Source of the DNA: an uncultured Verrucomicrobiota bacterium
GTDB taxonomy: Bacteria; Verrucomicrobiota; Verrucomicrobiia; Opitutales; UBA9783
Assembly: GCA_902495005.1 (NCBI GenBank)
Contig: CABUVL010000005.1
Span: 21,131-85,130, forward strand
Length of the DNA stretch: 64,000 nt
Direction of reading: 5' to 3'
Position 1 is the stretch's first letter. The number at the start of each line of letters is the position of its first letter. The notes under the pieces are model-generated. The model saw nothing but the letters and a program-made list of their open reading frames with translations, searched no databases and was not told where the DNA came from. Shown here piece by piece: positions 1,112 through 64,000 of this stretch. The translations under genes were made by a program, and so were the position numbers.

Positions 1112-1846
1112 CTACAGCTCTTCCTCTAAAAACTGAGGGATTGTTGGGATAAGTAATCGACCGCAATGTTCGCAAAATTCGGGTGTCATGGAGGCCGTAA
1201 CGCGTGCGACGGTATCGTTGGACACCGTCAGGTGGCATCCTGAGCAGCGATTTCCGTTGGTCAGAGGGACGATAAGTGGGAATGCTTTGGTGCATTTTCT
1301 TAAAATGACGTAAGCCTCATAAAAAGGGCCTTTGAGGGCCGATTCAAAGGCGTGAAGCGCTTGTTGTTGCTCTTCGTACTGAGATTGGGCCTGTGCACAC
1401 GCCTGGGTAAGTTGTTGTAGCTGCTGCTTGAGCGCGTTGATGACATTGGCTGAGTCGTCGATGTCACTTTGGTAGAGAGCTCTTTGATGTTCGATTTCGT
1501 CCAAGGCGTTGAGCAATTCTGTTTCAAGTTCCCCAATTTTTTGTTTTAAGTCCGCGATTGATTTTTCCAGCGCTTGGTATTCACCCGATTTTTTTGTGAT
1601 GGCTTGTTGAGTTTTTTGCTTGATGAGAAGCTCTTCCCATGTGTGCAGTTGTAATTCATTGTGTTCGTACTGCACTTCAAGCGCATGAATGGCTTGTTGT
1701 TTTTGATTTAACGTTTGATGGACAGCTTCAATTTTATTTTGAATGCGTGAAATTTCAGAGGCTAACGATTGAACTTGTTTTTGTTGAGCGATAGCGGATT
1801 GGTCAAGAGCCTGCAAATCCAATAATTGTTTCAGGAGTAAGTGCAC
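1112..1846 (-). CDS. Coiled-coil protein with C-terminal C4 zinc ribbon (COG1579/DUF164-like)
   Basis: 244-aa ORF with a GTG start. It has a long Q/E/L-rich heptad region followed by CSGCH...17 aa...CEHCGR, the architecture of the putative zinc-ribbon family. Confidence 0.6.
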   Translation of the reverse strand: MHLLLKQLLDLQALDQSAIAQQKQVQSLASEISRIQNKIEAVHQTLNQKQQAIHALEVQYEHNELQLHTWEELLIKQKTQQAITKKSGEYQALEKSIADLKQKIGELETELLNALDEIEHQRALYQSDIDDSANVINALKQQLQQLTQACAQAQSQYEEQQQALHAFESALKGPFYEAYVILRKCTKAFPLIVPLTNGNRCSGCHLTVSNDTVARVTASMTPEFCEHCGRLLIPTIPQFLEEEL

Positions 1847-1935
1847 AGGGCTTATCTAAGCTGATGAGATGTGTTTTGTAAAAGAAATTTTTTGAAAATG
1901 TTAAGATTTTGTCGGAAATTTTTTAAAAACTTGGC

Positions 1936-2328
1936 GTGAAAATTGCTATTAAGCTAGCCATGGACTTGAGTGAAAATGGTGAAAATCAGGCCGCAGCCTT
2001 GCTTGAAAGGTTAAAGGATATGGACAAGCAATTGAGTGAATTGCAAAAAAAATTAGCTGAGTCCAAGCTAGGAGGCATCAAAAACAGCTTTTTTACGGCG
2101 AATAACATAAAAGAGACCATAGCATTGTTAGAAAAAGTTAATCCAGAAGATAAGAATTTGATCCACACGCTTCGCAGCATGATTCCATTGGCGGAAAAGT
2201 CAGATGACGAATTGGAACGCCTGGCGGATCGAGAGAAAATCAAGTCTGAGCCTTCAAATGAACCCCATGAAGGAACTGCTTTCACCTCAAAAGTTAAATG
2301 TAAAATCCCCTGCAATCGATTGATTTAG
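1936..2328 (+). CDS. Hypothetical small coiled-coil protein
   Basis: 130-aa ORF with a GTG start (alternative ATG at 1960). It ends 2 nt before the next ORF, which suggests translational coupling. I recognise no family. Confidence 0.4.
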   Translation: MKIAIKLAMDLSENGENQAAALLERLKDMDKQLSELQKKLAESKLGGIKNSFFTANNIKETIALLEKVNPEDKNLIHTLRSMIPLAEKSDDELERLADREKIKSEPSNEPHEGTAFTSKVKCKIPCNRLI

Positions 2329-2330
2329 TC

Positions 2331-4193
2331 ATGTCTATATCTACAACCTATTCTTATCCAGTGCCATTGTCGGCGGCGACAAAGGAACCCATTGTTTCAA
2401 GTGGTACCTCGGATATACAGTCGATTAAAGCTGCTTACCAAGCTTTGTTCGGAGACACTGGCGTTCATACGAGGATTTTAAATGGTTTGTTCGAGCAATT
2501 AAAAAATATTTTAGAGAATGGGCGTAATACAGGCCAAGGTCAAGATAAGCTAACAAATATTCAGAATACCTTTAATTCGACGGACGATCTAAATGCCATT
2601 GTAGAAGCCTTAGAAACGAAAATTACCTGGGATTTTAAAAACACTGACAACAATAAGTTATGTAAGGAGGGAATACACGCGTATATTTTTTATTTAAAGG
2701 ATGTCGTCGCGGATTTAAAGCAGATGAGCACTTACGTCAGTGCAGCGCAAGAACTTTTAGAAAAATTGGACAATGCCAACAGCGACAACGCGCACGTTAT
2801 TTTTGATAAATTGAGTACCTACGATCAATTTTGCGAGGAGATTGTACAAGGTTTTACTGAACATTTTGATACTAAAAATGGCGAGTATGTAATCTCAACT
2901 GCCAAATCCACAGAATGCTTAGATACCAAGGGCTTGAAAGCTGCCACTGTGATGGAAATGAGTGATCTTTGGAATAAGTCTAACCTTGATGATTTTCGTA
3001 GCAGTGCCGATGTTCAAGTCTTCAATCAATTGCGTAAGCTGGAAAAATTAAAATACATTCGGATGTACTACAATATCATTTTGGGCAATACAGGTTTGCA
3101 AACGGTATTCCCAGATGATTTAAGTACGGGCTACCCTTGTGTCCCCAATGATAGCAGCTCGGAGAGCGCGACGAGTGAAGTGCAAGAAATGGGTGGCTTG
3201 GAGATGTTTTACATCGGTTATTTAATTAGCCGTGACGGGCCCATCAATGCGTTGTCTTCTTTCTTAGAAGTGAAAACGCAAGCCTTGCGTCAAAATATTG
3301 CTCTTATGATGGAGAAGGTGGGGGCGTGTAATCGTTACCTGAGTTTTATCAATAGAGGCCTAGATTTGCTCAATACAAGTCAATCAGGAGGTAATTCGGC
3401 GATTCCTCCAGGTGCCTACGTGGCTTTAACGTTTTTCTGCGGAGGGACCATGCGTGGTTTGAAAACGATAAAGCACCCGGACGGTGGAGAGGCGCAGTAC
3501 TTTGTCTTTTCAACGGATGAATATGATAGCAATGGTTATAGCTTAAGTGGTTCAAAGAAGAGTGGCAATGGACGTTATTTGTTAATTAAATCGGATGACT
3601 CAACTTTGGATAATTTCTTAGGTGGGTCGACGGGCTACGCCACTGATTGGTGGAGAAAAGATAATAAATATACTTGGGATATTGAAAAGTATAATGAAAC
3701 CTTATCAGATAAAGAGGGAACTTCATTAGGGGTCCAGTTTACAGTTGATGGAATGGATAATGTTAGCTTTTATAAAGGTTTTGCACGCACTTATTTCAAT
3801 AAAGATCCTAAAGACAATACAGTTGATTTAAGGCCCACCGCTTCTTATAACGACACCAAAACTAATGAAAACGGTGAGTATATCGTAGCGGTTCCAAGCA
3901 GCGCTGATGTTGCTAAGTCTTGGCTTCCAAAACAACTGGCGGTTGACAAAGTACTCCCATCGAGTGCCCAAAGATATAATAGTAATTGGTTCGAAAAAAT
4001 AGATGCCACGGTGCTCAATTCTTGGACGACGGCCTTTACCAATAAGTCGCAGTACATCAACACGTACATTGAAACCATCAATAATGACGTGTCGACCATG
4101 CGTACGAAAATCGATACGTTCGATTCCGCATCCTCAACCTTTAGAAACCGCGCGTACGATACCTACTCGAGCATTGTGTCGCGTATCAGTTGA
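2331..4193 (+). CDS. Hypothetical 620-aa protein, candidate secreted (type III) substrate
   Basis: Long uninterrupted ORF with no signal peptide or TM segment. The N-terminus is Ser/Thr/Pro-rich and lacks acidic residues (MSISTTYSYPVPLSAATK). The C-terminal ~55 aa are amphipathic. No recognisable enzymatic motif. Confidence 0.6.
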   Translation: MSISTTYSYPVPLSAATKEPIVSSGTSDIQSIKAAYQALFGDTGVHTRILNGLFEQLKNILENGRNTGQGQDKLTNIQNTFNSTDDLNAIVEALETKITWDFKNTDNNKLCKEGIHAYIFYLKDVVADLKQMSTYVSAAQELLEKLDNANSDNAHVIFDKLSTYDQFCEEIVQGFTEHFDTKNGEYVISTAKSTECLDTKGLKAATVMEMSDLWNKSNLDDFRSSADVQVFNQLRKLEKLKYIRMYYNIILGNTGLQTVFPDDLSTGYPCVPNDSSSESATSEVQEMGGLEMFYIGYLISRDGPINALSSFLEVKTQALRQNIALMMEKVGACNRYLSFINRGLDLLNTSQSGGNSAIPPGAYVALTFFCGGTMRGLKTIKHPDGGEAQYFVFSTDEYDSNGYSLSGSKKSGNGRYLLIKSDDSTLDNFLGGSTGYATDWWRKDNKYTWDIEKYNETLSDKEGTSLGVQFTVDGMDNVSFYKGFARTYFNKDPKDNTVDLRPTASYNDTKTNENGEYIVAVPSSADVAKSWLPKQLAVDKVLPSSAQRYNSNWFEKIDATVLNSWTTAFTNKSQYINTYIETINNDVSTMRTKIDTFDSASSTFRNRAYDTYSSIVSRIS

Positions 4194-20247: not shown

Positions 20248-21957
20248 ATGAATAAAAAGCTTGCGTTATGCTTGAGGGACGGTATCATAAGTACATGGAC
20301 ATTAACGGCTCAACGGCTCAACGGCTCAACGGCTATAATAAGGCATAATGCCCTTTTAGGCTCTCTTTTATTTTATTTGTTTGGATGGATTTCCAGCTAC
20401 GCTTATACGCCTCCGTTTAAGTATAACACATTTTCCTTACTTAATACAACCTACATTCGTGATGGCACTACGTGGCGAGACTCCTTTTATTCAGCTTTAG
20501 GAAGTTGGGAGAAGTGCTTTCAAAGTTATCGACCCGGTTTTATGCTTGATTCTGATGGCACTTTATATGCCGTGTACTCAGATTGGGCAGGTGGTTTTGG
20601 AGGTAAAACTTATTATGTTATGAAACGAGGAGTCCCTAAGGAAGTCGGTGGTTATAATAGTAGCACTGATGTTTGCTCGGGTTTTTATTTTGATGTCGAT
20701 GAACTGCTAGGTTGTAAGGGTACTTGGACTACTGAAGTGAATTTTCGGAATGACACCGAGAAACAAAATTTTCAAAATTGCGCCTGGTTGACTTTAACGC
20801 CGCAGATTGCTCAACCTAGTGGTTCATCCTCTTATATACACACTATGATTTATATTTTGCCTCGCTGTTATTGGGATGCATCTAGTAGCGAAACCAAGGG
20901 ACGTTTCTTATGGTGCAGAATTAATAAAAGTAATATGACCATTCAATGGTCGGAAAGTTTTACTGAAGAGAAATATGGAAATGCAATGTCTTTCGGTGGC
21001 TTTCCAAAAATTGGGACAGTGAACAGTAGGCCTTCTCATTTAGCTTATTTGAATGGAAATCAACTCGATTGGTATTGGATAAATATGCAAGGCAATTACA
21101 ATATGTTGTGTAGAGGACGGATTAACGTTGCGGCGAGTCAGACAGCCTTTGTTGAAAGTTTTAAGACCTTACATGGTCAGGATGAAAACTGTTCTTTGGA
21201 GAAAGTAATGAAGGTTGATGGCCAAGTTTACCTTCTCGTAATTAGCTTAATTTGGGGTACAGATCGACAGTTGTTTATCTATAAAATAAATTCAGCAGGA
21301 AGTTTTGAATCTTCTTTTGGTAGTGAGTATTTCCTCGACTGTAGCCAAAAAAGAGAATTCGGAAGTGGATGCCCTTTACAGGTAGGTGCATCATCTATTT
21401 ACCATGCGGATATGAATATAGTTGATGGGATTTATTTGGTGATGAAATTCGAATATGGTGATGACATTAATCTTTATCACCTTGGGACTTCTAAGTCTTA
21501 TTGGAATGCCAATTACTTATCATGGAGTATAAATAGATTGGTATTACTTATAAGTTCAAATGATGGTACAAATAGTGACAATTGGTATGTACACCCTGAA
21601 AATATCATTTATGTAACAAATGAAATTGTATGTTCAGACGCATTGTGTAAAAATACACACAAGTTTGTAGTTTACAAAGATTACATTATCTACGCGTACT
21701 GTTATCCCGGTAAATCTAAACAACTTATTTTGGGAGCGGCGAGGTATTATATCGATAAAGATAAGCATCTTCATTTGATGACAAAGACGGAATTTCGAGA
21801 CAAGGATGGCAACAGCTTTGGAACATTGACGAATTGTGATAGACTCGTTTTTATGGATATTAAGAATGGTCACTTGTGGCTTGCGTGGATGGCAAGCTAT
21901 CTGGAAGTGTATTATATGTACGTCAACGCCCAAGATGTTATCGACGCAAGTGTGTAA
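20248..21957 (+). CDS. Cys-rich secreted hypothetical protein, paralogue A of a two-member family in this window
   Basis: 569 aa. A hydrophobic h-region LLGSLLFYLFGWISSYA is followed by YTPPF. It is full-length collinear with the 54095-55735 product, and the last ~100 aa are roughly 70 percent identical by hand alignment. GC content is lower than in neighbouring core genes, by eye. Confidence 0.75.
   Translation: MNKKLALCLRDGIISTWTLTAQRLNGSTAIIRHNALLGSLLFYLFGWISSYAYTPPFKYNTFSLLNTTYIRDGTTWRDSFYSALGSWEKCFQSYRPGFMLDSDGTLYAVYSDWAGGFGGKTYYVMKRGVPKEVGGYNSSTDVCSGFYFDVDELLGCKGTWTTEVNFRNDTEKQNFQNCAWLTLTPQIAQPSGSSSYIHTMIYILPRCYWDASSSETKGRFLWCRINKSNMTIQWSESFTEEKYGNAMSFGGFPKIGTVNSRPSHLAYLNGNQLDWYWINMQGNYNMLCRGRINVAASQTAFVESFKTLHGQDENCSLEKVMKVDGQVYLLVISLIWGTDRQLFIYKINSAGSFESSFGSEYFLDCSQKREFGSGCPLQVGASSIYHADMNIVDGIYLVMKFEYGDDINLYHLGTSKSYWNANYLSWSINRLVLLISSNDGTNSDNWYVHPENIIYVTNEIVCSDALCKNTHKFVVYKDYIIYAYCYPGKSKQLILGAARYYIDKDKHLHLMTKTEFRDKDGNSFGTLTNCDRLVFMDIKNGHLWLAWMASYLEVYYMYVNAQDVIDASV
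20304..20334 (+). repeat. Tandem 8-bp repeat AACGGCTC x3.9 inside the 5' end of paralogue A
   Basis: Read directly: aacggctc aacggctc aacggctc aacggct. The unit length is not a multiple of 3. It lies between the ATG (20248) and the signal-peptide-like segment. Confidence 0.95.
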
Positions 21958-22494: not shown

Positions 22495-24348
22495 CTATTG
22501 GTTGATAAAATATTCTTTCTTTGTGTAATAAGTGTCGGCCCGTTCAACACAGGTTTGCAGATCGTAAGATGGGAGATTTACTTGAAAAAATGAGTCCAAC
22601 TCAGCCTTTTCTTTTCCATCTTTACCTAAATAAAGGTTGACTGCATAGCTGCCGAAGTGTTGGGAGGAAACAAATGGAATCAGGCCTCCACTGCTTTTAA
22701 TAGCCTTTATCAAATATTTTGTGGCTTTAAGTGAGTGATAACGCATTTTTGTTTCCTTGAAGAACTTGCTTTGTCGGTGTGCATAAAAATATTCTTCTTG
22801 TGCTTGAGTTAAGAGCTGATTGATACGTCCGGAAAGTTTACTGTCGTTCAGTAATTGTTGAAAAGTGGAACGCTCTCTATTTAATTGCTTAAGGTAGGCC
22901 TCCTTATTCTCCACGACATATTGCCCCTTGTTAACGTCACTGATAAAGTTATCAATCGTGTTTATGTTCAATGCGTAATATTTTCGCAAGAGGTCGACCG
23001 TATCTTCAAAGGCCCAATGGGTTAATGTTTCATAACCGTAATCGCAATTACAAATTAACTTGGCGATGTTGATGTAAGCTTTGTCAAAAAACGTGGCAAC
23101 GCCATTGACGATAATTTTTGCAATCTTCAGAAAGACAATTTTGCTTGGATCTTTTTCAATGTTGTGCCCGAGAGGTAAGTTGGTGACAATGTCCATAACG
23201 CTGCTGTACCCGAGCATATTGTTTACGCCGATGACATTTTCATACACTTCCCGCGTGTACGTATTTCCCCACGCCCGTGTGGGTGAAAAAAAGATACCGT
23301 AGGTCAAGTTGAAGATTTTGTTGTCAAAATTTGGACCGTACAAGTATTCGCCGATTTGAGTCGTTATGTCGGCAATTGTTATTTGGGCTATGCCGCCGCC
23401 TTGGCTGTGTCCCGTGCAATACACTTGAAAGGTACACTTGCGTGCATTATCAACAAAGTCTTTCAATGCTTGGCCGCTTAAAGCTTGCACTCCTTTAGAC
23501 TGCTCGGAAAGAATTTTGAAAGAATCTTGCTTTAATTCTTTGATGAGTAATTTTTGTATTTTTCTGTGGAGAGAGGGGCGAAAAGATAAAAATTTATTAC
23601 AATACCCCTGATGAAAACAAAGCGCTTCCTTGCCTTCAGATAAAAATTTATTGGGGATGCCAAGCTCGCTGGCTTGAATGCTCTTGTGGGCGCCATCAAA
23701 GTTACTGAACCAACTGGCACCGGCATTGCCTTGCAAGGGTTGAAATTTTTCACCTTGTGAACCTCGTAATGTGACAAAAATGTCAATGTGCTTCCAACCA
23801 TTGGCTTCGGGGGTTATTTTATAAGCTAAAAAGCCAGGGTAATCAATTTCAGTGTTTTTCCCTGCCCCTTGTTGTCCTACGAAGGGGGACATTGATATAA
23901 TCCCCGTGTTCTTTAACCATTCTGTTTCCGGAGAAGTCCTTCCGTCGATATCCCCGAGCTCGTTGTACGTGTATTGTCCTGCACTGGTCCGTTTTGTATT
24001 GGCGTAAGCGTTGGCATTTAAATAGGCCAAAACAAAACATTTATCCGCTGTTAATTCAGAATTTACAATGCGTTTTCCCGTTTCTTGACGGATCAGCGGC
24101 TTTGTTGATGTTAACGCCGATTTCTGCAGAATGAATGCAGACGTCCCATCTAGGCTTTCATTAAACGACGCGTTTTCTACTTTGGTGGGCTGATCGGCAA
24201 ATAATTTGTCAGGGGTGTCGTCGAAAAATACGTCTTGAGCGTCCCATGGGGTTTCAGTTGCCAGTATTGTCTCATTTGGGAAGGCAAGGTTTATGAGCAC
24301 AAGGGCGGTACTTAATTTTGTCAGCTTTTTATGAAATACTTTCATCAT
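22495..24348 (-). CDS. Secreted alpha/beta-hydrolase, lipase (class 3-like)
   Basis: 617 aa with an N-terminal signal-like segment (KLTKLSTALVLINLAFPNETILA) and a nucleophile elbow in VYCTGHSQGGGIAQI. The C-terminal ~200 aa have no recognised motif. Confidence 0.6.
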   Translation of the reverse strand: MMKVFHKKLTKLSTALVLINLAFPNETILATETPWDAQDVFFDDTPDKLFADQPTKVENASFNESLDGTSAFILQKSALTSTKPLIRQETGKRIVNSELTADKCFVLAYLNANAYANTKRTSAGQYTYNELGDIDGRTSPETEWLKNTGIISMSPFVGQQGAGKNTEIDYPGFLAYKITPEANGWKHIDIFVTLRGSQGEKFQPLQGNAGASWFSNFDGAHKSIQASELGIPNKFLSEGKEALCFHQGYCNKFLSFRPSLHRKIQKLLIKELKQDSFKILSEQSKGVQALSGQALKDFVDNARKCTFQVYCTGHSQGGGIAQITIADITTQIGEYLYGPNFDNKIFNLTYGIFFSPTRAWGNTYTREVYENVIGVNNMLGYSSVMDIVTNLPLGHNIEKDPSKIVFLKIAKIIVNGVATFFDKAYINIAKLICNCDYGYETLTHWAFEDTVDLLRKYYALNINTIDNFISDVNKGQYVVENKEAYLKQLNRERSTFQQLLNDSKLSGRINQLLTQAQEEYFYAHRQSKFFKETKMRYHSLKATKYLIKAIKSSGGLIPFVSSQHFGSYAVNLYLGKDGKEKAELDSFFQVNLPSYDLQTCVERADTYYTKKEYFINQ

Positions 24349-28877: not shown

Positions 28878-29179
28878 GTATTTTATTTTTGGTAGAAAGC
28901 GTCGATTGACAAGTTTAATTTATGCCCGTTTAGAAAGAGGTTAATAAAAACTGAAAATGATGGGTGTAAATTCCACCCGTAAGGTCGCTGGGTTAATTCT
29001 TAAAATTTCATGAAAATAAAACCGAGATTTGAGAACGAATGGGCATTTTTGGAGATAATGACCATCTCGTAATGCCTAGAATAGCTCTTTAGGCATTACA
29101 TTCTCACGCTTTGTCATCCTTGCCTCTTACCCAACTTTAAGTAACAAGCGTTGTGCCATACGCCGGGCACAATAAGCTC

Positions 29180-29413
29180 TTATTGACTTTGCGTTAGCTG
29201 TTGATTTTTATAAACTTGTGCCTTGCGATCAGCTAATGGTGTGTGTGGAATTTCATGGCTTGTAGATTCCAATGCAATCCCTCTCAAGGAAGCTTGTTCG
29301 GGTAAGGAAAGTTTTTGCCCATCAAAACTCCCTACGGATGAATTGAAATTTACCCCTTGCTGTCCAATGGGATTTTGAATGTTCGTAACAGAAGAATGAA
29401 TGCCTATTGACAT
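29180..29413 (-). CDS. Hypothetical small ORF
   Basis: 77-aa ORF in the AT-rich islet with no recognisable motif. Confidence 0.25.
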   Translation of the reverse strand: MSIGIHSSVTNIQNPIGQQGVNFNSSVGSFDGQKLSLPEQASLRGIALESTSHEIPHTPLADRKAQVYKNQQLTQSQ

Positions 29414-29693
29414 AGTATTATTGAAATGTTAATTCAATAGGGAGTCAATGCAATACTGCTTTGAAAATTGATTGATACCATTAATTTGTCTCTAAAATGA
29501 ATAGATTTTTCGCTTCATTTCAAAATTTACCATTGTAAGTTACGGTTACGTCTACAGAATTGCGCTTTTGTGATATTTAAGTGCTTGGGAGTCAAATTAC
29601 TCACCTTATCCAATCATGGCCTCTGAATCATAAAAACAAAGGCCATTATTTTTCATATTATTTCAATTACTTGTTACCAAGGGACAATTATCT

Positions 29694-30871
29694 TTAATAA
29701 ATTAAGCAACAGGAATTTTCAGATTTTCGAGGACACACATCACTAGCTTCTTCTGTTATTATTCCAGAACTTGTGACTGCAGATATAAGTTCCCGCATTG
29801 CTTTTTCTATGGATTCTTGAGTTAAAATTTCGAATAAATATGCTGAATGTTTGCCCGCACACGCTAATCGATTTATCGTCTCAGACACACATGCCATTTG
29901 TTTTGCTGCATTTGAACTTTTCCCTATTTTTTCTTGAAGCCTTTGATATTCTATTAAGGCAATAACCCTTGTAAGTCCGTAATGGGCGAGATCGTGTACA
30001 AAATTACGTTTTATGTACGCACAAATGTAATTTTCTGTTTTCTTTTGCAGTTCTTCAGAGCGTAAATTTTCTGGGATCCCTTCCATTACACATGCTACTA
30101 AAGAATCTATTGGATTTGATGCTTTTTCTAAAAAAGTATTATTTCCATCTATCAATTGTATGGAAATGTGGAACATCGTTAATTCAAAGTACATTGATTG
30201 TACGTAGCTGGTGACTGCCTGTGCTCTTTCATTTAGAGGAAGATCTGCATTGTTCAATGTGGCATAAAGTGCATCTGTTTCAAAAAAACTAGAGTAAAGT
30301 TCGTCATTATCGCCTTTCGAGAAAATTTCATGTGCGACCCCGTGACCGCTTTCATGCGCCATACCAACCATTAGGTCAGCGAAAGTTGGGCGCACTAAAC
30401 AAAATTTTTGCTCGTTGTAAGAATAATGCCCACCGTGTAAGTCGTCTATTTTCAACTCATCTTTATATTTTTTTTATCTTCCGAATTTTTGGGAGCCAAA
30501 TGTATACTATTTGAATCTAAAGAAGTCTTTACAACTTGAGCCGCAAAATTTCGTATTTTTCCATTTTTCATGATCAGCATTTTTTCTGTCATATTATGCC
30601 AAGCTTGTAATATTTCTTCGTTAGAAATGGCAGCTGTTCCTGTTGAACAGCTTTCTCCAGTCGCTGCGTTTGATAGTGACTCGTATGACTCATATAACCA
30701 TTGTTTCTTTTGACAAATTTGATCAAAATAGGTTTTATAAGGACCGATAATTTCTTTTACCTGGCCTAATTCCAAGTTAAGTTGTCGTGCAGGATCCAAT
30801 TCACGCGATCCATTCAGTACTAACTTTGCTGGTTGTTGTATCAGGGAGAGATTATTTCCTGCCTCTCCCAT
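29694..30871 (-). pseudogene. HExxH (gluzincin-like) protein gene split into two ORFs by a frame change at an A8 tract
   Basis: ORFs 30452-30871 and 29694-30455 overlap by 4 nt. The span of 1178 nt is not a multiple of 3. Adding one A to the A8 run (plus-strand T8 at 30468-30475) fuses them: ...SEDKKKYKDELKIDDLHGGHY.... The zinc motif MAHESGHGVAHE lies in the downstream part. The C-terminus is ...SCCLIY. Confidence 0.7.
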
Positions 30872-30875
30872 TCCC

Positions 30876-31058
30876 TCATTTCGCGAGAGTCAATTGCTTT
30901 ATACGGCAAAGGGTCTGTGCTTCGTTTTCTTGAACCTTTTGCTTAGTTTCTGCAGAAAACCCATAGTTTTTCCCATCCGCCATACTTTCGCAAAAGCTGA
31001 ATAGAAATGCAATACTCCCTGAGAAATACTTTTTAATAATATTTGTTTTAGTAAGCAT
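30876..31058 (-). CDS. Hypothetical 60-aa ORF, possibly a former 5' part of the HExxH gene
   Basis: It ends 4 nt before the next ATG and is in the same frame as the C-terminal HExxH ORF (31058 minus 30455 is divisible by 3). The chance expectation for that is 1 in 3, so this is weak evidence. Confidence 0.2.
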   Translation of the reverse strand: MLTKTNIIKKYFSGSIAFLFSFCESMADGKNYGFSAETKQKVQENEAQTLCRIKQLTLAK

Positions 31059-31269
31059 GAATAGTCATATAAAGAGTTTTTTATCTATGGCAATAAAAAA
31101 TTTTATTTTTGACGATTGCTTTTGATTTTTATTTATCAAATAAATAGGAAATCGTTCCTTGGGGTCTCGTTATTATTTATAATTAATTGGCTAATGTGAT
31201 GGGGTAAAAAGGAAATCGTATATTTTTATTTATAAAAATTCACTTTTTTCTTGTGAATTAAGTGCCTGC

Positions 31270-31294
31270 CCACGCAGGCGTTCGTGGCTTTTTT
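31270..31294 (+). terminator. Orphan intrinsic-terminator-like hairpin (CCACG-N8-CGTGG-C-TTTTTT)
   Basis: Read directly. It overlaps an alternative GCCTGC-CCAC-GCAGGC hairpin (31264-31279) and is preceded by an AATTCAC/GTGAATT hairpin (31237-31259). No plus-strand CDS lies upstream. Confidence 0.35.
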
Positions 31295-31555
31295 ACTTTG
31301 ATGTGCTTGGAATTAGCTTGGGAGATATCAAAAATACATATGTATTTGCTGCATTAAGTATGGTAGAATTTGCGTATAGGTTACTTATTTTGTACCTGTG
31401 ACAAGACAAAGTCAGTTAAAAGTACTGATACATGGCTTACTTATTTTTCTGGAAGTAAAATAAGCAAATTGTTGACGGTTGTTAGGACTACCTGACAGTC
31501 CATAAATTTTTCATTGACAAACCCGAGTGATTTTTATCTTATAAGCACGTTGAGT

Positions 31556-31633
31556 GGTGGTTGTAGCTCAATTGGCTAGAGCACTGGATTGTGGTTCCAG
31601 GGGTTACCGGTTCGAGACCGGTCTACCACCCCA
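31556..31633 (+). tRNA. tRNA-His (anticodon GTG), CCA encoded
   Basis: Hand-folded cloverleaf with the extra G-1 pairing with C73, D stem GCTC/GAGC, anticodon stem CTGGA/TCCAG with loop TTGTGGT, and T arm ACCGG-TTCGAGA-CCGGT. There is one T-T mismatch in the acceptor stem. Confidence 0.9.
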
Positions 31634-31677
31634 ATTTATTCCTCATAATTGTTTAAGCCACTGGCATAGTGGGGAGG

Positions 31678-31803
31678 CCGTAGTTGATTAAAATAAATAG
31701 CGAAATTGCGGGGTGGATGTCGAAGGTTGTAAGGTTCGCTGCTTAGCTTGTCCTATTTTGATGTCTAACGACTTCAAGCTTCAAGGGATCCGTAGTTGAT
31801 TAA
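31678..31803 (+). repeat. Two copies of the 14-bp direct repeat CCGTAGTTGATTAA, 112 bp apart, just 3' of tRNA-His
   Basis: Read directly at 31678-31691 and 31790-31803. Confidence 0.85.
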
Positions 31804-32341
31804 TTGCAAAAGAGCTTAATGCCATTGGATGCGAAGAGAATGTCTGCCTCTATAACGGGTGCCAAAGCGTGGGCAAGTGTAAGATTTTAGACGTTTAATG
31901 ATTTCTTCAATTAAAATGTAAATCCGTTGGCCCGTCATCATGTGGTCCCATGATCTTAGTTGCTGTGTTGGCACTTTTATAAAAATTCAGTTTTGTTGCG
32001 TATGCTTCGCTTAATGGGATATACATTTTGCGATTTGTTCCCCATTTTTTTACTAAGAGCTTACGTGATGATGGAAAATGCCTTGAAGGGCAATTGCTTG
32101 TGCCTATTCACTTGTAGCACGCGCGATTGTTCAATCAGGCCACGACTGCAGGAATGTGTTACGGTAAAATATTTTTGGCCGATCGATAAGGGTGTTTTTA
32201 TTTAGTTTGTTTTTTATCAACAAAATAATGTATTGGTGTTGAGCCGGAGCCATAAAGGATTTGACCATGACGCAGCCAGTAACGAGGTGTTTGGCGTAAT
32301 TAAAATGACGTTTTTACGTGTTCCTAAAATATGAGAGCGCC

Positions 32342-34876: not shown

Positions 34877-35264
34877 TGGTGGAGGTGGCGGGATTTGAAC
34901 CCGCGTCTTCTGCACATTTAATTAAAGCTTCTACAAGCTTAGTACATTTTGGGTTGTCCACATTAAACCCGTATGCACACGTTTTTAATGTGTAAGTGAT
35001 AGAAAATACGATTGGAAATTACCACACTTTCCAATTATACTCGCTGAGTGAGCTTTTAAAATTAAGCGAGCATCCATTTTAAAAGCAGAATTGCATCTAT
35101 AGGCAATTCATACGATATCCTAAGCAGCCATCGCCAAGGAGGCGCTTGGGAATTTTACTACATTGTTTTCATTTATTTGTAAATGGATTGATAACGAAGC
35201 CAACCATCATCTTCGGCCTGCCACTTTAATTATACATTACAAAATCGAATCCAATAACACCCCC
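34877..35264 (-). ncRNA. ssrA: tmRNA (SsrA)
   Basis: 5' end GGGGGTGTTATTGGATTCGA and 3' end GACGCGGGTTCAAATCCCGCCACCTCCACCA. The acceptor stem carries the G3-U70 alanine identity pair. An internal tag frame ends ...VVKFPSASLAMAA then TAG. Confidence 0.92.
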
Positions 35265-49870: not shown

Positions 49871-49945
49871 GCCCGTGTGGTGTAACGGTCAGCACGGTAG
49901 GTTCTCATCCTACAAATCGCAGTTCGATTCTGCGCATGGGTGCCA
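49871..49945 (+). tRNA. tRNA-Glu (anticodon CTC), CCA encoded
   Basis: Hand-folded: acceptor GCCCGTG/CATGGGT (two G-T pairs), anticodon stem GTAGG/CCTAC with loop TTCTCAT, and T arm CGCAG-TTCGATT-CTGCG. Confidence 0.8.
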
Positions 49946-50761: not shown

Positions 50762-52288
50762 ATGAGTCAGATAACTACAGAACCAGAATTTTCAAAATTG
50801 AGGCGAATTTTTTTCCCAATTCACCGTTACGAATTGAAGAAAGTGCTCCCCATGGGGATGATCTTTTTCTTCATTTTGTTTAATTACACGTGTTTGAGAA
50901 ATATTAAGGATTCCCTGGTTGTAACGAGTACGGGGGCTGAAGCGCTTTCTTATTTAAAATTATTCTGCGTTACACCATCGGCAATTTTGTTTATGTTATT
51001 GTACGCGAAAGCGAGTAATATCCTGAGTAACGAGAATTTATTTTATGCAACTCTGTCGCCTTTCATTATTTTCTTTGGCTTGTTCGCATTTGTAATTTAC
51101 CCGAATCGCGAATGGTTCCATCCGGCCGCAGAAACGATCGCAACTTGGCAATCACAATGTCCTTCTTTGCACTGGCCAATCGCCTTGTTGGGTGTTTGGA
51201 GTTACGCTTTATTCTACGTGCTGGCGGAATTGTGGGGCAGTGCGTTGTTGTCTTTGTCCTTCTGGCAATTTGCCAACCAAGTTACGCGTGTCTCTGAAGC
51301 AAAGCGCGTTTATGCATTTTTCGGCTTAATGGCGCAAATTTCTTTGCTGTTGGCGGGTGTCTTGGGCGATTATTTCTCAAATATTTCCGATAAAGTAGGC
51401 CCGGGGGTCGATCCTTGGCAAGTTTCTTTAAATTGGTTAATGGGTATTGTGGTTATTTTTGGTATTGCCACGATGGCCATCTACAAGTGGATTTACAAGT
51501 TTGTCTTAACCGACAAGCGCTTCTACGATAAGCCAGAATTGCCGGGTGTAAAGAAGGGAAAGAAAAAGGCGGGCTTGGTTCAAAGCTTAAAGACGATCTT
51601 CACTTCACCTTACTTGGGCTTAATTGCAATGTTGGTTATTTGCTACGGTGTCAGCATTAACATCATTGAAGGTTTGTGGAAGAGTCAATTGAAGTTGCAA
51701 TACCACAATGAAAATGACTATAACACGTTTATGAGCCGTTTCACGATTGTGACAGGTTTTGCATCGATCATCATGTTGATCGTGGGTGGAAACATATTGC
51801 GTATCTGCCGCTGGGTGGTTGCCGCGATGTCGACGCCGGTTGTCATATTCTTGGGCGGTATTGCGTTCTTTTTGTTTGTCCTGTTTAAGGAAGAATTGGC
51901 GGGCACAGTTGCGCAATGGGGAACCAATCCTATCGCCGTGGCGGTTTTGTTGGGAGCCATGATTGTTGTTATGTCTAAAGCCACGAAGTACGCCTTGTTC
52001 GACTTGACGAAGGAGATGGCTTATATTCCATTGGATGAAGAAATGAAGGTTAAAGGTAAGGCCGTTGTCGATGTCGTTGGTGGACGTTTAGGAAAATCGG
52101 GTGGCGCATTCATTCAAGTAGCTTTATTCTCGATTGTAAGTTCGCTGACGGGTGTCAAGGCGACTTATTATAAGATTGCGCCTTACGCGTTTGCTTTATT
52201 TATCCTAACATGCATTGTGTGGATATTATCCGTAAAAGCGTTGAGTAAGCGTGTTGAAGCGGCAAACGTCAAAGCGGGTGAAGCCTAA
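50762..52288 (+). CDS. ntt: Nucleotide transport protein (ATP/ADP translocase, TLC/Ntt family)
   Basis: KLRRIFFPIHRYELKKVLPMGMIFFFILFNYTCLRNIKDSLVVT..., 12-TM topology, and YIPLDEEMKVKGKAVVDVVGGRLGKSGGA. Confidence 0.93.
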   Translation: MSQITTEPEFSKLRRIFFPIHRYELKKVLPMGMIFFFILFNYTCLRNIKDSLVVTSTGAEALSYLKLFCVTPSAILFMLLYAKASNILSNENLFYATLSPFIIFFGLFAFVIYPNREWFHPAAETIATWQSQCPSLHWPIALLGVWSYALFYVLAELWGSALLSLSFWQFANQVTRVSEAKRVYAFFGLMAQISLLLAGVLGDYFSNISDKVGPGVDPWQVSLNWLMGIVVIFGIATMAIYKWIYKFVLTDKRFYDKPELPGVKKGKKKAGLVQSLKTIFTSPYLGLIAMLVICYGVSINIIEGLWKSQLKLQYHNENDYNTFMSRFTIVTGFASIIMLIVGGNILRICRWVVAAMSTPVVIFLGGIAFFLFVLFKEELAGTVAQWGTNPIAVAVLLGAMIVVMSKATKYALFDLTKEMAYIPLDEEMKVKGKAVVDVVGGRLGKSGGAFIQVALFSIVSSLTGVKATYYKIAPYAFALFILTCIVWILSVKALSKRVEAANVKAGEA

Positions 52289-54094: not shown

Positions 54095-55735
54095 TTGGTT
54101 GATTATTCTAACTTGGTGGGCGTGAGTCTTAAATATAACTTTTTTTTGGCTATTCTCTTGATTTGTTGCGGTACCGCCGTTTGGGCTTACACACCTCCAT
54201 TTTACAGTAAGTGTAAGTTTTCTAATTATTGTTGGCCTATTTATTGGTCCATTAATTCTGGAGATAAGACTGCGATTAATCCAAGTTTTATGGTAGATCA
54301 CAATGGAGATTTATTTTACGTGGGTCCGGATCCCGGAAGTGGCTTTGGTAGTGTATTTTTTTTAGTGAAAGTTACAAAAGAAGGAACTTATAATCATAAA
54401 GCTGTATACCCTTATCAATGTGCAGGTTATGCTGTAAGTTTAGATACAACAAAGCTTTCTAGTTCAGATAAACAACGGCTTTGGGTTAATTTTACCCCGT
54501 CAGTTGCATACGAGTCGGTTGAAACAGATTATGTTTATGTTGTCTTTTACGTTTTACCAAATAGGTTCAGTGCTTCTGGGACAACCAATGAAGGCTTTGT
54601 GTTTATGAAATTTAGAAAATCGGATTTGGATCTGGCTGGAGATCACTCTATGAGTTCAGTTGCAAGCAAGTTTGTAAATTTCAGTGATTCTTCTTTACTT
54701 AAATTTTCTTCTTCAACGTGTGGATATGTGACTGAATTTTGTTACTCAGGTTTGCCACCCTTTAATAACTGTACTATTAATCAATGTTGTTTCCTCGCTT
54801 GTGTTAATAATGATGCGGTATCCGTGTATTACACTAATGATTACAATTCAAGTTCTGCGAACACAAATAGTTTTGGATTAAGAGAGGTGGCATGCTCAAC
54901 AGATCTTAGTGCCGTAAAGTCTATGAGAAGTGATACCGGTGGGTGGGAGACCAGTACTCCGCGAGCTTTGAAACGAATATTAACTTATGAAGGTAGTACT
55001 TATTTATTAATAGTAAATGCGGGGTGGTTTTTAAGATTTTTTAAGATAGTGCCTTCCGTATCAATGAGTTTTTGCAGAAGTTGTTATTATTACGGTGCTT
55101 ATATGCATACGATAAGTTGGACCACGAGTGATTGTAGTTACGATGGTGATATGGGAATAGTAAAGGCTAACGATGGAACTATAATAGATCTTGGTTTGCA
55201 GTTATCTTGTTCATATCATATTAAAAATTCGACTTGGTCAACGGATAAAATATCTTCGGATACAATGAATAATAAAATTGTTTTGTTTTTACAATCTGGA
55301 AGTTCTTCAGTGCCTGATTGGTCTGGCTATTGGTACGGTGGCCCTGAGAATATTATTTATGTATCTGGTGTAAATAAGTATGGAGGAAGTATAAATTCGA
55401 GTACTTGCTCAGAGGCAACCTTGTATAGAAATACATACAAGTTTGTGGCTTACAATAATTACATTATCTATGCGTATTGTTATCCGGGGAGAACAAAGCA
55501 ACTTATTTTGGGGGCTGCAAGGTATTATATTGACTCACAATATCAAGTTCATTTATTGACGAAGACAGAATTCAGAGATAAAGATAACAACAGCTTTGGT
55601 ACGCTGACAAATTGCGATCACCTCATGTTTATGGATGTTAGAAATGGGCACTTGTGGTTGGCTTGGATGGATACCAACAATTATATTCGCCACATGTACG
55701 TTAAAGCTCAAGACATTATCGATGCGTGCTACTGA
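54095..55735 (+). CDS. Cys-rich secreted hypothetical protein, paralogue B
   Basis: The likely true start is GTG 54122, giving the signal peptide MSLKYNFFLAILLICCGTAVWA followed by YTPPF. About 20 Cys. The C-terminal block YKFVAYNNYIIYAYCYPGRTKQLILGAARYYID...TKTEFRDKDNNSFGTLTNCD...NGHLWLAWM is shared with paralogue A. Confidence 0.75.
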   Translation: MVDYSNLVGVSLKYNFFLAILLICCGTAVWAYTPPFYSKCKFSNYCWPIYWSINSGDKTAINPSFMVDHNGDLFYVGPDPGSGFGSVFFLVKVTKEGTYNHKAVYPYQCAGYAVSLDTTKLSSSDKQRLWVNFTPSVAYESVETDYVYVVFYVLPNRFSASGTTNEGFVFMKFRKSDLDLAGDHSMSSVASKFVNFSDSSLLKFSSSTCGYVTEFCYSGLPPFNNCTINQCCFLACVNNDAVSVYYTNDYNSSSANTNSFGLREVACSTDLSAVKSMRSDTGGWETSTPRALKRILTYEGSTYLLIVNAGWFLRFFKIVPSVSMSFCRSCYYYGAYMHTISWTTSDCSYDGDMGIVKANDGTIIDLGLQLSCSYHIKNSTWSTDKISSDTMNNKIVLFLQSGSSSVPDWSGYWYGGPENIIYVSGVNKYGGSINSSTCSEATLYRNTYKFVAYNNYIIYAYCYPGRTKQLILGAARYYIDSQYQVHLLTKTEFRDKDNNSFGTLTNCDHLMFMDVRNGHLWLAWMDTNNYIRHMYVKAQDIIDACY

Positions 55736-63218: not shown

Positions 63219-64000
63219 TTATGGAACAAATCCGATGATGTCTTTGGCTGACAGAGGATGGCCGATATCCAGTTTATTCTTTGCGTATTGACCTAGAACG
63301 GATTCCCAATATTTTGGAGCTAAGCCGAATGATGGACGGATGATTTTAAGATTGTCTTTTGTAAATTGTTCTCCGCATTCAATCGGCTTACTGACGTAAA
63401 TAGAGCATCGATACCTGTGCCCTTCATAATTTTCTATTTCTTCTTCCCCCAAGCCCTTGTAAAGTTCTTTGCCTGTATTGACCATCAAGCGAAACTCGTT
63501 AGGTTCTAGGGATAAGATGTTTTCGACGGCATCGCCTTGTCGATTGAGAATAAAATGCTTTTCTATGAGGCTGGCGCCCAGAGAAATGCTACCCAGTGCA
63601 ATGTTAATGGAGGGCGTGTGGTCCGAAATGCCCACCGAGCATTTAAACTGTTTTTGTAAGTATGTAATGGTTCGCAAGTTACGTACGGGCAACTCAACGT
63701 GCTTTAGCAGCATCCAATGTTTACATCCGTTGTCTTGCAGGGTTGTAATGGCCTCCTTTATTTCATTGAGATTGGCCCATCCAGTGCTGAGGATGACGGG
63801 CTTGGCCGTAGAAGCTACTTTTTTGAGCAATGGCAAATGCGTAATTTCTAGCGATGGAATTTTGTAAGCGGGTGGATTGACGTGCGTTTCCAGAAAATCA
63901 ACGGCCGTTTCATCAAAAGGAGTGCACAAAAATGTTATATTTTGCATTTTTGCGTATTCGGCCAATTCTTCATGCCATTCCCAGGGCGTGTAACTTATTT
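63219..64000 (-). CDS. neuB: Sialic-acid-type nonulosonate synthase (NeuB/PseI/LegI family), C-terminal part; gene runs off the right edge
   Basis: YKIPSLEITHLPLLKKVASTAKPVILSTG, GISDHT, and a C-terminal SAF-like domain. The frame stays open upstream of the ORF-track start to position 64000 (...ISYTPWEWHEELAEYAK). Confidence 0.8.
   Translation of the reverse strand, partial: ISYTPWEWHEELAEYAKMQNITFLCTPFDETAVDFLETHVNPPAYKIPSLEITHLPLLKKVASTAKPVILSTGWANLNEIKEAITTLQDNGCKHWMLLKHVELPVRNLRTITYLQKQFKCSVGISDHTPSINIALGSISLGASLIEKHFILNRQGDAVENILSLEPNEFRLMVNTGKELYKGLGEEEIENYEGHRYRCSIYVSKPIECGEQFTKDNLKIIRPSFGLAPKYWESVLGQYAKNKLDIGHPLSAKDIIGFVP

Follow-up and report, generated by a model that had tools for sequence, protein, structure and literature searches.

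Phase variation driven by repeats in families of surface proteins is characteristic of bacteria that live in close and antagonistic contact with hosts or phages; the known cases come mainly from Proteobacteria, Campylobacterota and Mollicutes. Here we describe a candidate case in a stretch of 64,000 nucleotides (nt) from an uncultured Verrucomicrobiota bacterium (hereinafter, the window; positions 21,131 to 85,130 of contig CABUVL010000005.1, assembly GCA_902495005.1). The window contains two paralogous genes, denoted copy A and copy B, that encode predicted exported proteins of the same family; an 8-base repeat located in front of the export signal apparently acts as an on/off switch for copy A. 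The protein family is new and the mechanism is of a known kind, in a phylum and lineage for which we found no earlier report.

The Hop/Sab/Bab outer-membrane adhesins of Helicobacter pylori combine CT repeats in the signal-sequence region with gene conversion and conserved C-terminal segments. The family described here is likewise a set of paralogs with 5' coding repeats, apparent exchange between paralogs and a conserved C-terminus; however, the conserved C-terminus of Hop proteins forms a beta-barrel in the membrane, whereas here it is predicted to be part of a propeller. In Neisseria, translational phase variation of about 11 opa genes is brought about by CTCTT repeats in the sequence coding for the leader peptide (PMC3745409). 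As in the Opa system, the genes analyzed here are dispersed paralogs with conserved and variable segments, with mosaic exchange between loci and with a non-triplet repeat in the leader-coding sequence that restores or disrupts the frame. Unlike Opa, which are eight-stranded outer-membrane beta-barrels, the present proteins are predicted to be soluble seven-bladed propellers without a membrane anchor; furthermore, the repeat unit is 7–11 nt rather than 5 nt, locus A has starts in two frames, and the phylum is Verrucomicrobiota.

The NanH3 sialidase of Gardnerella is phase-variable via a poly-C tract (bioRxiv 10.1101/2020.09.16.300947). It shares with the proteins predicted here the combination of an exported beta-propeller and a 5' coding repeat of variable length that shifts the frame, but is a recognizable GH33 enzyme with a homopolymer tract and a cell-wall anchor, whereas the present family is without a sialidase signature and has octa-, hepta-, deca- or undecanucleotide repeats. 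The GH33 (NanA), PL24 and PL42 enzymes are similar in the predicted fold class only: there is no sequence relationship, TM-scores are at most 0.55, and no catalytic motifs were identified in the family. Finally, the chlamydial Pmp proteins are, similarly, a lineage-specific paralogous exported family in a bacterium of the Planctomycetes-Verrucomicrobia-Chlamydiae group that encodes a TLC transporter and type III secretion components; they differ in being autotransporters that contain GGA(I/L/V) and FxxN repeats and end in a C-terminal barrel, for which there is no Pfam match here.

The octanucleotide repeat of copy A

The repeat of copy A (Table 1) is the top-scoring tandem repeat of the window according to Tandem Repeats Finder (TRF) and its only perfect repeat of period 4–12 and at least 24 nt. 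Two alternative ATG codons (20248 and 20268) precede it, and the hydrophobic core of the signal peptide follows. With the repeat number n counted including the terminal partial unit, ATG 20248 (MNKKLALC...) is in frame at n = 1 mod 3 and ATG 20268 (MLEGRYHKYMDI...) at n = 2 mod 3; the third frame is closed by a TAA directly 5' of the repeat. The stretch from the repeat to the hydrophobic core lacks start codons, the sole alternative being a TTG inside the core. A scan for promoters and terminators around copy A yielded nothing above the shuffled expectation.

Among independent assemblies in which the gene is >99% identical, n takes the values 3, 4, 7, 8, 9, 10 and 27; this comparison rests on consensus assemblies. 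ATG 20248 is in frame at n = 4, 7 and 10 (the window, P0038/P0039, P0036 and P0041), the proteins P0038 and P0039 being identical to that of the window, and ATG 20268 is in frame at n = 8 (L042/P0001). At n = 3, 9 and 27 (L048, L047 and L046, respectively), the frame is closed by the TAA, leaving only the TTG within the core. In one more scaffold (L004), a run of N extends across the repeat. The gene body is intact in every allele, including those with the closed frame. The members of the protein A cluster have lengths of 471, 569, 573, 577 and 585 aa, and these differences are explained by the tract in the DNA. In particular, it was predicted before the DNA was inspected that leaderless gene calls (471 aa) would have n = 0 mod 3, and this is the case in all three such calls with intact flanks. 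Thus, the repeat has the sequence hallmarks of a simple-sequence repeat contingency locus, namely a non-triplet unit, a variable number of units and toggling of the frame.

We propose that slipped-strand mispairing changes n and that, with a unit of 8 nt, each change would shift the reading frame. At n = 1 mod 3 and n = 2 mod 3, ATG 20248 and ATG 20268, respectively, would be joined to the protein (ON), whereas at n = 0 mod 3, with the frame closed by the stop codon 5' of the repeat, no exported protein would be possible (OFF). Under this scheme, the window allele, with n = 4, is formally ON. From the repeat polymorphism and its consequences for the frame, we infer that expression of the protein is switched ON and OFF within the population; the run of N in L004 and the breaks of contigs at repeats are the hints of this in the assemblies.

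Table 1. Features of the window relevant to the two family genes, followed by other features mentioned in the text
Feature	Coordinates	Strand	Basis or remarks
Copy A, 569-aa family member	20248..21957	+	ORF (open reading frame) list; start ATG 20248 in frame at n = 4 of the window
Start-codon region of A	20248..20303	+	ATG 20248 and ATG 20268 in different frames; TAA closes the third
Octanucleotide repeat of A, (AACGGCTC)x3.9, proposed slipped-strand phase-variation switch	20304..20334	+	TRF score 62
Remainder of the leader of A, with IIRHN, the hydrophobic core ALLGSLLFYLFGWISSYA and a predicted site for signal peptidase I after A52	20335..20403	+	Sequence; S at -3, A at -1
Variable body of A with mature N-terminus YTPPF (approximately blades 1–5)	20404..21639	+	DSSP strands; 25% aa identity to B, pN 0.54
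Conserved C-terminal block of A, residues 465–569, YIIYAYCYPG motif	21640..21954	+	70% aa identity to B; strands 471–560
Copy B, 546-aa family member	54095..55735	+	ORF list; AlphaFold2 model pTM 0.82
Leader of B (...KYNFFLAILLICCGTAVWA followed by YTPPF)	54095..54187	+	Sequence
T8 run in leader-coding region of B, possible, unproven second switch	54140..54147	+	T8 in 10/12, T7 in 2/12
Conserved C-terminal block of B, residues 442–546	55418..55732	+	Alignments; strands 448–537
620-aa ORF without Pfam match	2331–4193	+	Low-GC stretch (0.39)
617-aa protein, hydrophobic leader and GHSQGG serine-hydrolase motif	22495–24348	-	Sub-threshold Lipase_3, E=4e-4
Low-GC region of 3 kb (0.36)	29000–32000		GC skew locally reversed, few ORFs
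tRNA	31557–31630		Within the low-GC region
Complete tmRNA	34877–35264	-	Rfam, 149 bits
GreA-like elongation factor, 618 aa	38880–40736	-	GreA/GreB domains only in residues 469–604
tRNA	49871–49942		
TLC ATP/ADP translocase, full-length	50762–52288	+	Pfam E=1e-184
NeuB-family synthase (sialic or nonulosonic acid)	63219–63965	-	At the window edge

Repeats at other loci of the family

In 420 kb of related loci from metagenome-assembled genomes (MAGs), which were searched for perfect repeats of period 4–12 with at least 3 copies and at least 24 nt, 12 of the 13 repeats detected sit just 5' of a gene of the family, on its strand. The units are AGACCCA or AAGACCC (7 nt), AAGACCTC or CCTCAAGA (8 nt), TCGCCGTTCT (10 nt) and GTCTTACAAGG (11 nt), i.e., never a multiple of three. 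At L017, L030 and L032, as in copy A, the start codon is separated from the hydrophobic core by the repeat. This is a clean signature, given that nearly all perfect non-triplet repeats in the examined loci precede a single family. Eight of the 13 repeats are located exactly at contig ends, and there are practical consequences for annotation: assemblies break at the repeats, and gene callers mis-annotate the genes as truncations of 471, 481 or 529 aa.

At five further loci (L013, L014, L018, L019 and L020), the frame is open for 130–300 codons upstream of the signal peptide. The open stretch crosses degenerate copies of an 8-nt repeat (encoding peptides such as LEPEQRLKSNRELxP...), and in most of these loci it is without an in-frame ATG. 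It is unclear whether it is translated, a decayed repeat array or a long phase-variable leader.

Copy B is without an ATG start, and gene callers variously choose TTG 54095, a GTG, the TTG that follows the T8 run or Met codons further inside the gene. Accordingly, proteins of 546, 539, 529, 481 and 471 aa are annotated on identical DNA (window positions 54095–54130; loci L001, L007 and L043), and such choices of the start account for the majority of the "short" proteins of copy B (481, 529 and 471 aa). The true start might be TTG 54095 or the GTG used in other gene calls. The T8 run in the leader-coding region, which is one of 11 homopolymers of at least 8 bases in the window, was compared in 12 sequences (11 assemblies and the window). 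Switching of copy B by this run was considered and dropped because T7 occurs in just 2 of the 12 sequences and T8 runs are common in this AT-rich genome.

A third paralog and probable exchange of gene ends

A third paralog of the same species, C (P0002, locus L041), is located outside the window. It is 84% identical to copy A over two shared segments, one of about 190 nt at the 5' end, in which the second ATG and the repeat lie, and one of about 325 nt at the 3' end. By contrast, its body is closer to that of copy B (41% aa identity) than to that of copy A (27%). The dS values of the A/C pair are 0.35 (5' end) and 0.59 (3' end) compared with 1.92 in the body, which indicates exchange of ends between paralogs. 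Paralog C thus has the appearance of a mosaic of A-type ends and a B-type body, and indicates that the paralogs exchange ends by recombination. In these comparisons, conversion or mosaicism is supported between A and C and not between A and B. Paralog C also carries the repeat of copy A, with n = 3, 6, 11 and 12 in different assemblies.

Contig L005 (7.4 kb, sample ZEEV15) is a hybrid of the C flank (nt 1–1377) and the A body (nt 1198–3371), in which sequence from upstream of C, 98% identical to L041, runs into an A body that is 99.7% identical to that of the window. The junction falls across the segment of about 180 nt at the 5' end that is common to A and C. This contig is either a true recombinant between the paralogs or an assembly chimera; whichever its origin, the A and C loci coexist in one sample.

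A divergently oriented YscX-like type III secretion gene is located directly upstream of C (L041, 1897–2295; L005, 404–754). Hence the species that carries A and C appears to have a type III secretion system.

Homology of copies A and B and constraint on the C-terminal block

The proteins encoded by copies A and B are collinear over their full length (BLASTP E=3e-68, 32% identity). In a codon-level comparison, the last 105 codons are 70% identical at the protein level and 73% identical at the DNA level; the corresponding values for the bodies are 25% and 43%. The C-terminal block of copy A is 84% identical to that of paralog C at the protein level. The GC content is 0.35–0.40 across both genes and about 0.44–0.50 in the flanks. 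There are 15 Cys in A (2.6%) and 20 in B (3.7%) compared with 1.9% in the other ORFs of the window, so that the enrichment is real but mild, 1.4- to 2-fold. The only invariant Cys residues in the family alignment are C485 and C530.

Both proteins have a leader with n-, h- and c-regions and with small residues at positions -3 and -1 by inspection (SYA followed by Y in A, VWA followed by Y in B). The other family members with N-termini present also have a hydrophobic core, A or G at position -1 and the YTPPF motif. On inspection, then, A and B carry a Sec-type leader that is predicted to be a substrate of signal peptidase I. There is no lipobox, the mature N-terminus being Y (YTPPF), with no conserved Cys at the cleavage site in the family alignment.

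Most of these features were already recorded, correctly as it turns out, in a first-pass annotation of the window that was made from the sequence alone: two collinear homologs of 569 and 546 aa, a C-terminal block with about 70% protein and three-quarters DNA identity, about 15 and 20 Cys, GC below that of the flanks, and a hydrophobic leader ending in A before YTPPF. That annotation also reported a 5' simple-sequence repeat in both genes. The report holds for copy A, where the octanucleotide is present in 3.9 copies and its frame-shifting significance was missed, but not for copy B, where only an unexceptional T8 run is found.

In the A/B comparison, the proportion of synonymous differences (pS) is 0.67 in the C-terminal block, i.e., saturated, and 0.68 in the body; the proportion of nonsynonymous differences (pN) is 0.17 and 0.54, respectively. 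Because synonymous sites are as saturated in the block as in the body while pN is three times lower, the conservation of the block is best attributed to purifying selection and not to recent conversion. Overall, C-terminal pN is 0.12–0.17 against pS of 0.41–0.76, and the estimates of dN/dS for the body are 0.3–0.5, with dS saturated. The first-pass annotation had envisaged a family under diversifying selection, with a variable body and a conserved block; the block is indeed far more constrained, but with body dN/dS below 1, diversifying selection is not apparent.

Two other sources of the C-terminal similarity were considered and ruled out. Recent gene conversion between A and B is incompatible with the saturation of synonymous sites in the block. 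An assembly duplication artefact, an alternative already named in the first-pass annotation, is likewise incompatible with this saturation and with the fact that the A and B loci both recur in dozens of independent assemblies.

Predicted fold

AlphaFold2 models were built on a 20-sequence alignment, with a pLDDT (predicted local distance difference test) of 73 for both proteins and a pTM (predicted TM-score) of 0.78 for A and 0.82 for B. Both models are all-beta after the leader and consist of seven successive groups of four strands. In the B model, the last group is three-stranded, and an N-terminal strand (residues 41–46) is available to complete it, which would correspond to the "velcro" closure usual in propellers. 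When both models were compared with the PDB using Foldseek, only propellers were retrieved (the NanA, NanB and RgNanH sialidases, PL24 and PL42 lyases, and semaphorins), with E of about 1e-9, TM-scores of 0.33–0.55 and 7–10% identity. The weakest matches in the profile search are long BNR-like repeat proteins with the strand-turn-strand hairpin motif VDxxGxxY. These observations support the fold class, a single all-beta domain of about seven four-stranded blades, with no close structural relative; a beta-propeller body had been guessed in the first-pass annotation.

In the models, the C-terminal block (A, residues 465–569) comprises strand groups 6 and 7 and ends in a short helix. It carries the motif of blade 1 (FMLDSDGTLYAV compared with VFMDIKNGHLWLAW) and most columns that are invariant in the family alignment fall within it. 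The block is therefore predicted to be blades 6–7 of one propeller and not a separate module.

Distribution of the family and identity of the organism

Scans of A and B against Pfam and NCBIfam gave no match, when 20 members were scanned against Pfam with E values of up to 10 allowed, the matches were scattered, inconsistent and attributable to chance, and the family profile retrieved from PDB sequences nothing but a chance match to a T-cell receptor (E=0.075). Specifically, no Pfam or NCBIfam model of C-terminal sorting or anchoring (type IX secretion system C-terminal domain, PEP-CTERM, autotransporter barrel, LPXTG) matches A or B. An exhaustive profile search among 1.84 billion cluster representatives yielded 116 family proteins at E<=1e-3, and the named homologs are all hypothetical proteins of "Puniceicoccales bacterium" MAGs. 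When one genome per species was scanned, 29 family loci were found, all in Puniceicoccales/Opitutales MAGs or in Verrucomicrobia bacterium UBA1183, an unclassified member of Verrucomicrobiota. Five termite-gut MAGs contain 4–6 copies each. We found no paper on the family, on this gut lineage or on phase variation in Verrucomicrobia.

The GyrA protein of the window is 84% identical to that of Verrucomicrobia bacterium UBA1183. Downstream of copy B lie folKP, an F420-ligase-like gene and genes for a cNMP-binding protein, SecDF and RecJ, which are collinear and 59–80% identical with five termite-gut MAG loci (L012, L013, L019, L020 and L031) that have a family member in the same position. By this synteny, copy B occupies an ancestral locus. 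By these sequence comparisons, the organism is a gut Opitutales/Puniceicoccales verrucomicrobium and not a chlamydia. The assemblies with the alleles of the window have sample labels that resemble human-gut cohort codes, and one related genome comes from a Hadza gut metagenome; the labels point to a human-gut origin.

With respect to the family as a whole, the first-pass annotation anticipated the outcome in part. It had proposed an undescribed paralogous family distinct from Pmp, OmcB, MOMP and Inc, and this agrees with the failure of Pfam, NCBIfam and PDB sequence searches to place it and with the verrucomicrobial genome; enumeration of the family by profile search, which it had outlined, gave the 116 representatives, with all genome hits in verrucomicrobia. 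Its placement of the family in Chlamydiae, however, is contradicted by GyrA, by the synteny of copy B with Puniceicoccales and by the restriction of genome hits to Opitutales/Puniceicoccales.

A full-length TLC ATP/ADP translocase gene is present in the window (Table 1), and its homologs at termite-gut Puniceicoccales MAG loci L029, L017 and L014 are 47–52% identical. This transporter suggests energy parasitism or an intracellular lifestyle of the lineage.

Interpretation of the family and alternatives

We propose that these genes are an Opa-like contingency family, i.e., lineage-restricted, Sec-exported, single-domain propellers in which the repeat of copy A toggles the frame and paralogs exchange ends; we give this interpretation a probability of about 0.65. 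The route of export, the eventual localization and a function at the cell surface or in contacts with host, prey or phages are likewise inferred. The variable blades 1–5 would most likely form a ligand-binding or catalytic face that differs between paralogs, whereas the conserved blades 6–7 and the YTPPF motif would most likely serve propeller closure, docking to a conserved partner, or both. Our preferred reading is that the propellers are variable ligand-binding proteins exposed to host, prey or phages. If so, an uncultured verrucomicrobial gut lineage and a new protein family would be added to the known cases of repeat-driven phase variation, and the family would flag proteins that this bacterium exposes and varies. 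Together with the ATP/ADP translocase and the type III secretion components, the family points to a host-cell-associated lifestyle of an uncharacterized member of the human gut community.

Several observations weigh against this interpretation. The differences in repeat length between assemblies could be fixed strain differences, and with starts in two of the three frames, copy A would be OFF in only one third of the states. There is no convincing repeat in copy B, where the T8 run is unexceptional and T7 occurs only in two Logan assemblies. The dN/dS of the body, being below 1, gives no sign of positive selection. The proteins have no anchor, lipobox or recognized secretion tag, and the n-region of the A leader, at 30–40 residues, is unusual. 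Finally, the fold rests on models of moderate confidence (pLDDT 73) and on TM-scores of at most 0.55.

A broader version of the contingency-family interpretation is possible, although we consider it doubtful. It holds that this is the first contingency-gene family in Verrucomicrobiota, with an ancient switch that predates the divergence of the termite-gut and human-gut lineages, has persisted while its units changed and drives combinatorial ON/OFF display of new propeller adhesins or invasins; the bacterium, given its ATP/ADP translocase and type III secretion genes, may on this view be an energy parasite of gut protists or host cells. If true, the family would be a marker of the surface by which a new kind of intracellular symbiont in the human gut makes contact with its host.

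Among the alternatives, the one that fares best, while still unlikely, is that the proteins are phase-variable secreted glycan-active enzymes, similar to sialidases or polysaccharide lyases and acting on glycans of the host or of the bacterium's own surface, so that the conserved residues would be the active site and the variable blades would tune substrate specificity. The top Foldseek matches of both models, all of them sialidases or PL24/PL42 lyases, agree with this possibility, as do the invariant or near-invariant polar residues within the variable body (E190, R207, E218, K227, R319, Y385, D388 and R532), the precedent of NanH3 as a phase-variable propeller sialidase, and the NeuB-family synthase gene at the window edge. 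However, propellers cross-match promiscuously, and the TM-scores and identities of these matches are low (0.33–0.55 and 7–10%); no sialidase or BNR profile was matched by any of the 20 members at E up to 10, nor was there a match among PDB sequences, and D101, G104, D388 and D537 fall within the repeated strand-turn-strand motif of the blades and are probably structural.

Turning back to the contingency-family interpretation, its central element would be lost if the differences in repeat length were neutral strain polymorphism or assembly noise, with the family constitutive or decaying and no selected switch. The reliance on consensus assemblies, the poor performance of short-read assemblers on repeats, seen here in contig breaks and a run of N, and the accumulation of pseudogenes in reduced genomes all lend this possibility some weight. 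We nevertheless regard it as very unlikely: the repeats are perfect, have units that are never multiples of three, and occur, with differing units, in distant genomes but only at the 5' ends of genes of this one family; the gene bodies are intact in all assemblies, OFF alleles included; constraint on the C-terminal block is evident from the pN and pS values given above; and the predicted frame was found in 3 of 3 OFF alleles.

The model put forward in the first-pass annotation, a variable body on a separate C-terminal anchoring or secretion module within a Cys-rich, disulfide-cross-linked envelope like the chlamydial outer membrane complex, is highly improbable as well: conservation is by far the highest in the C-terminal 105 residues, several proteins that otherwise diverge (P0140, P0150, P0157 and P0158) also contain the block and the Cys content exceeds the local average, but the organism is not a chlamydia, the block is predicted to be two ordinary blades that share the motif of blade 1, no Pfam or NCBIfam model, those of sorting domains included, is matched, and only two Cys, in a family with mild enrichment, are invariant. 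For P0140 and P0150, which are distant relatives in the block, the flanking sequences were not long enough to yield information on gene context.

Other features of the window

Copy A adjoins, in one low-GC patch (0.38), a gene for a protein of 617 aa with a hydrophobic leader and a GHSQGG motif, which may be a secreted lipase or phospholipase. A 620-aa ORF near the start of the window also lies in a low-GC stretch, and a further low-GC region, 3 kb long, contains one of the two tRNA genes. The window additionally encodes a complete tmRNA and a GreA-like elongation factor that has a long uncharacterized N-terminal extension in front of its GreA/GreB domains.

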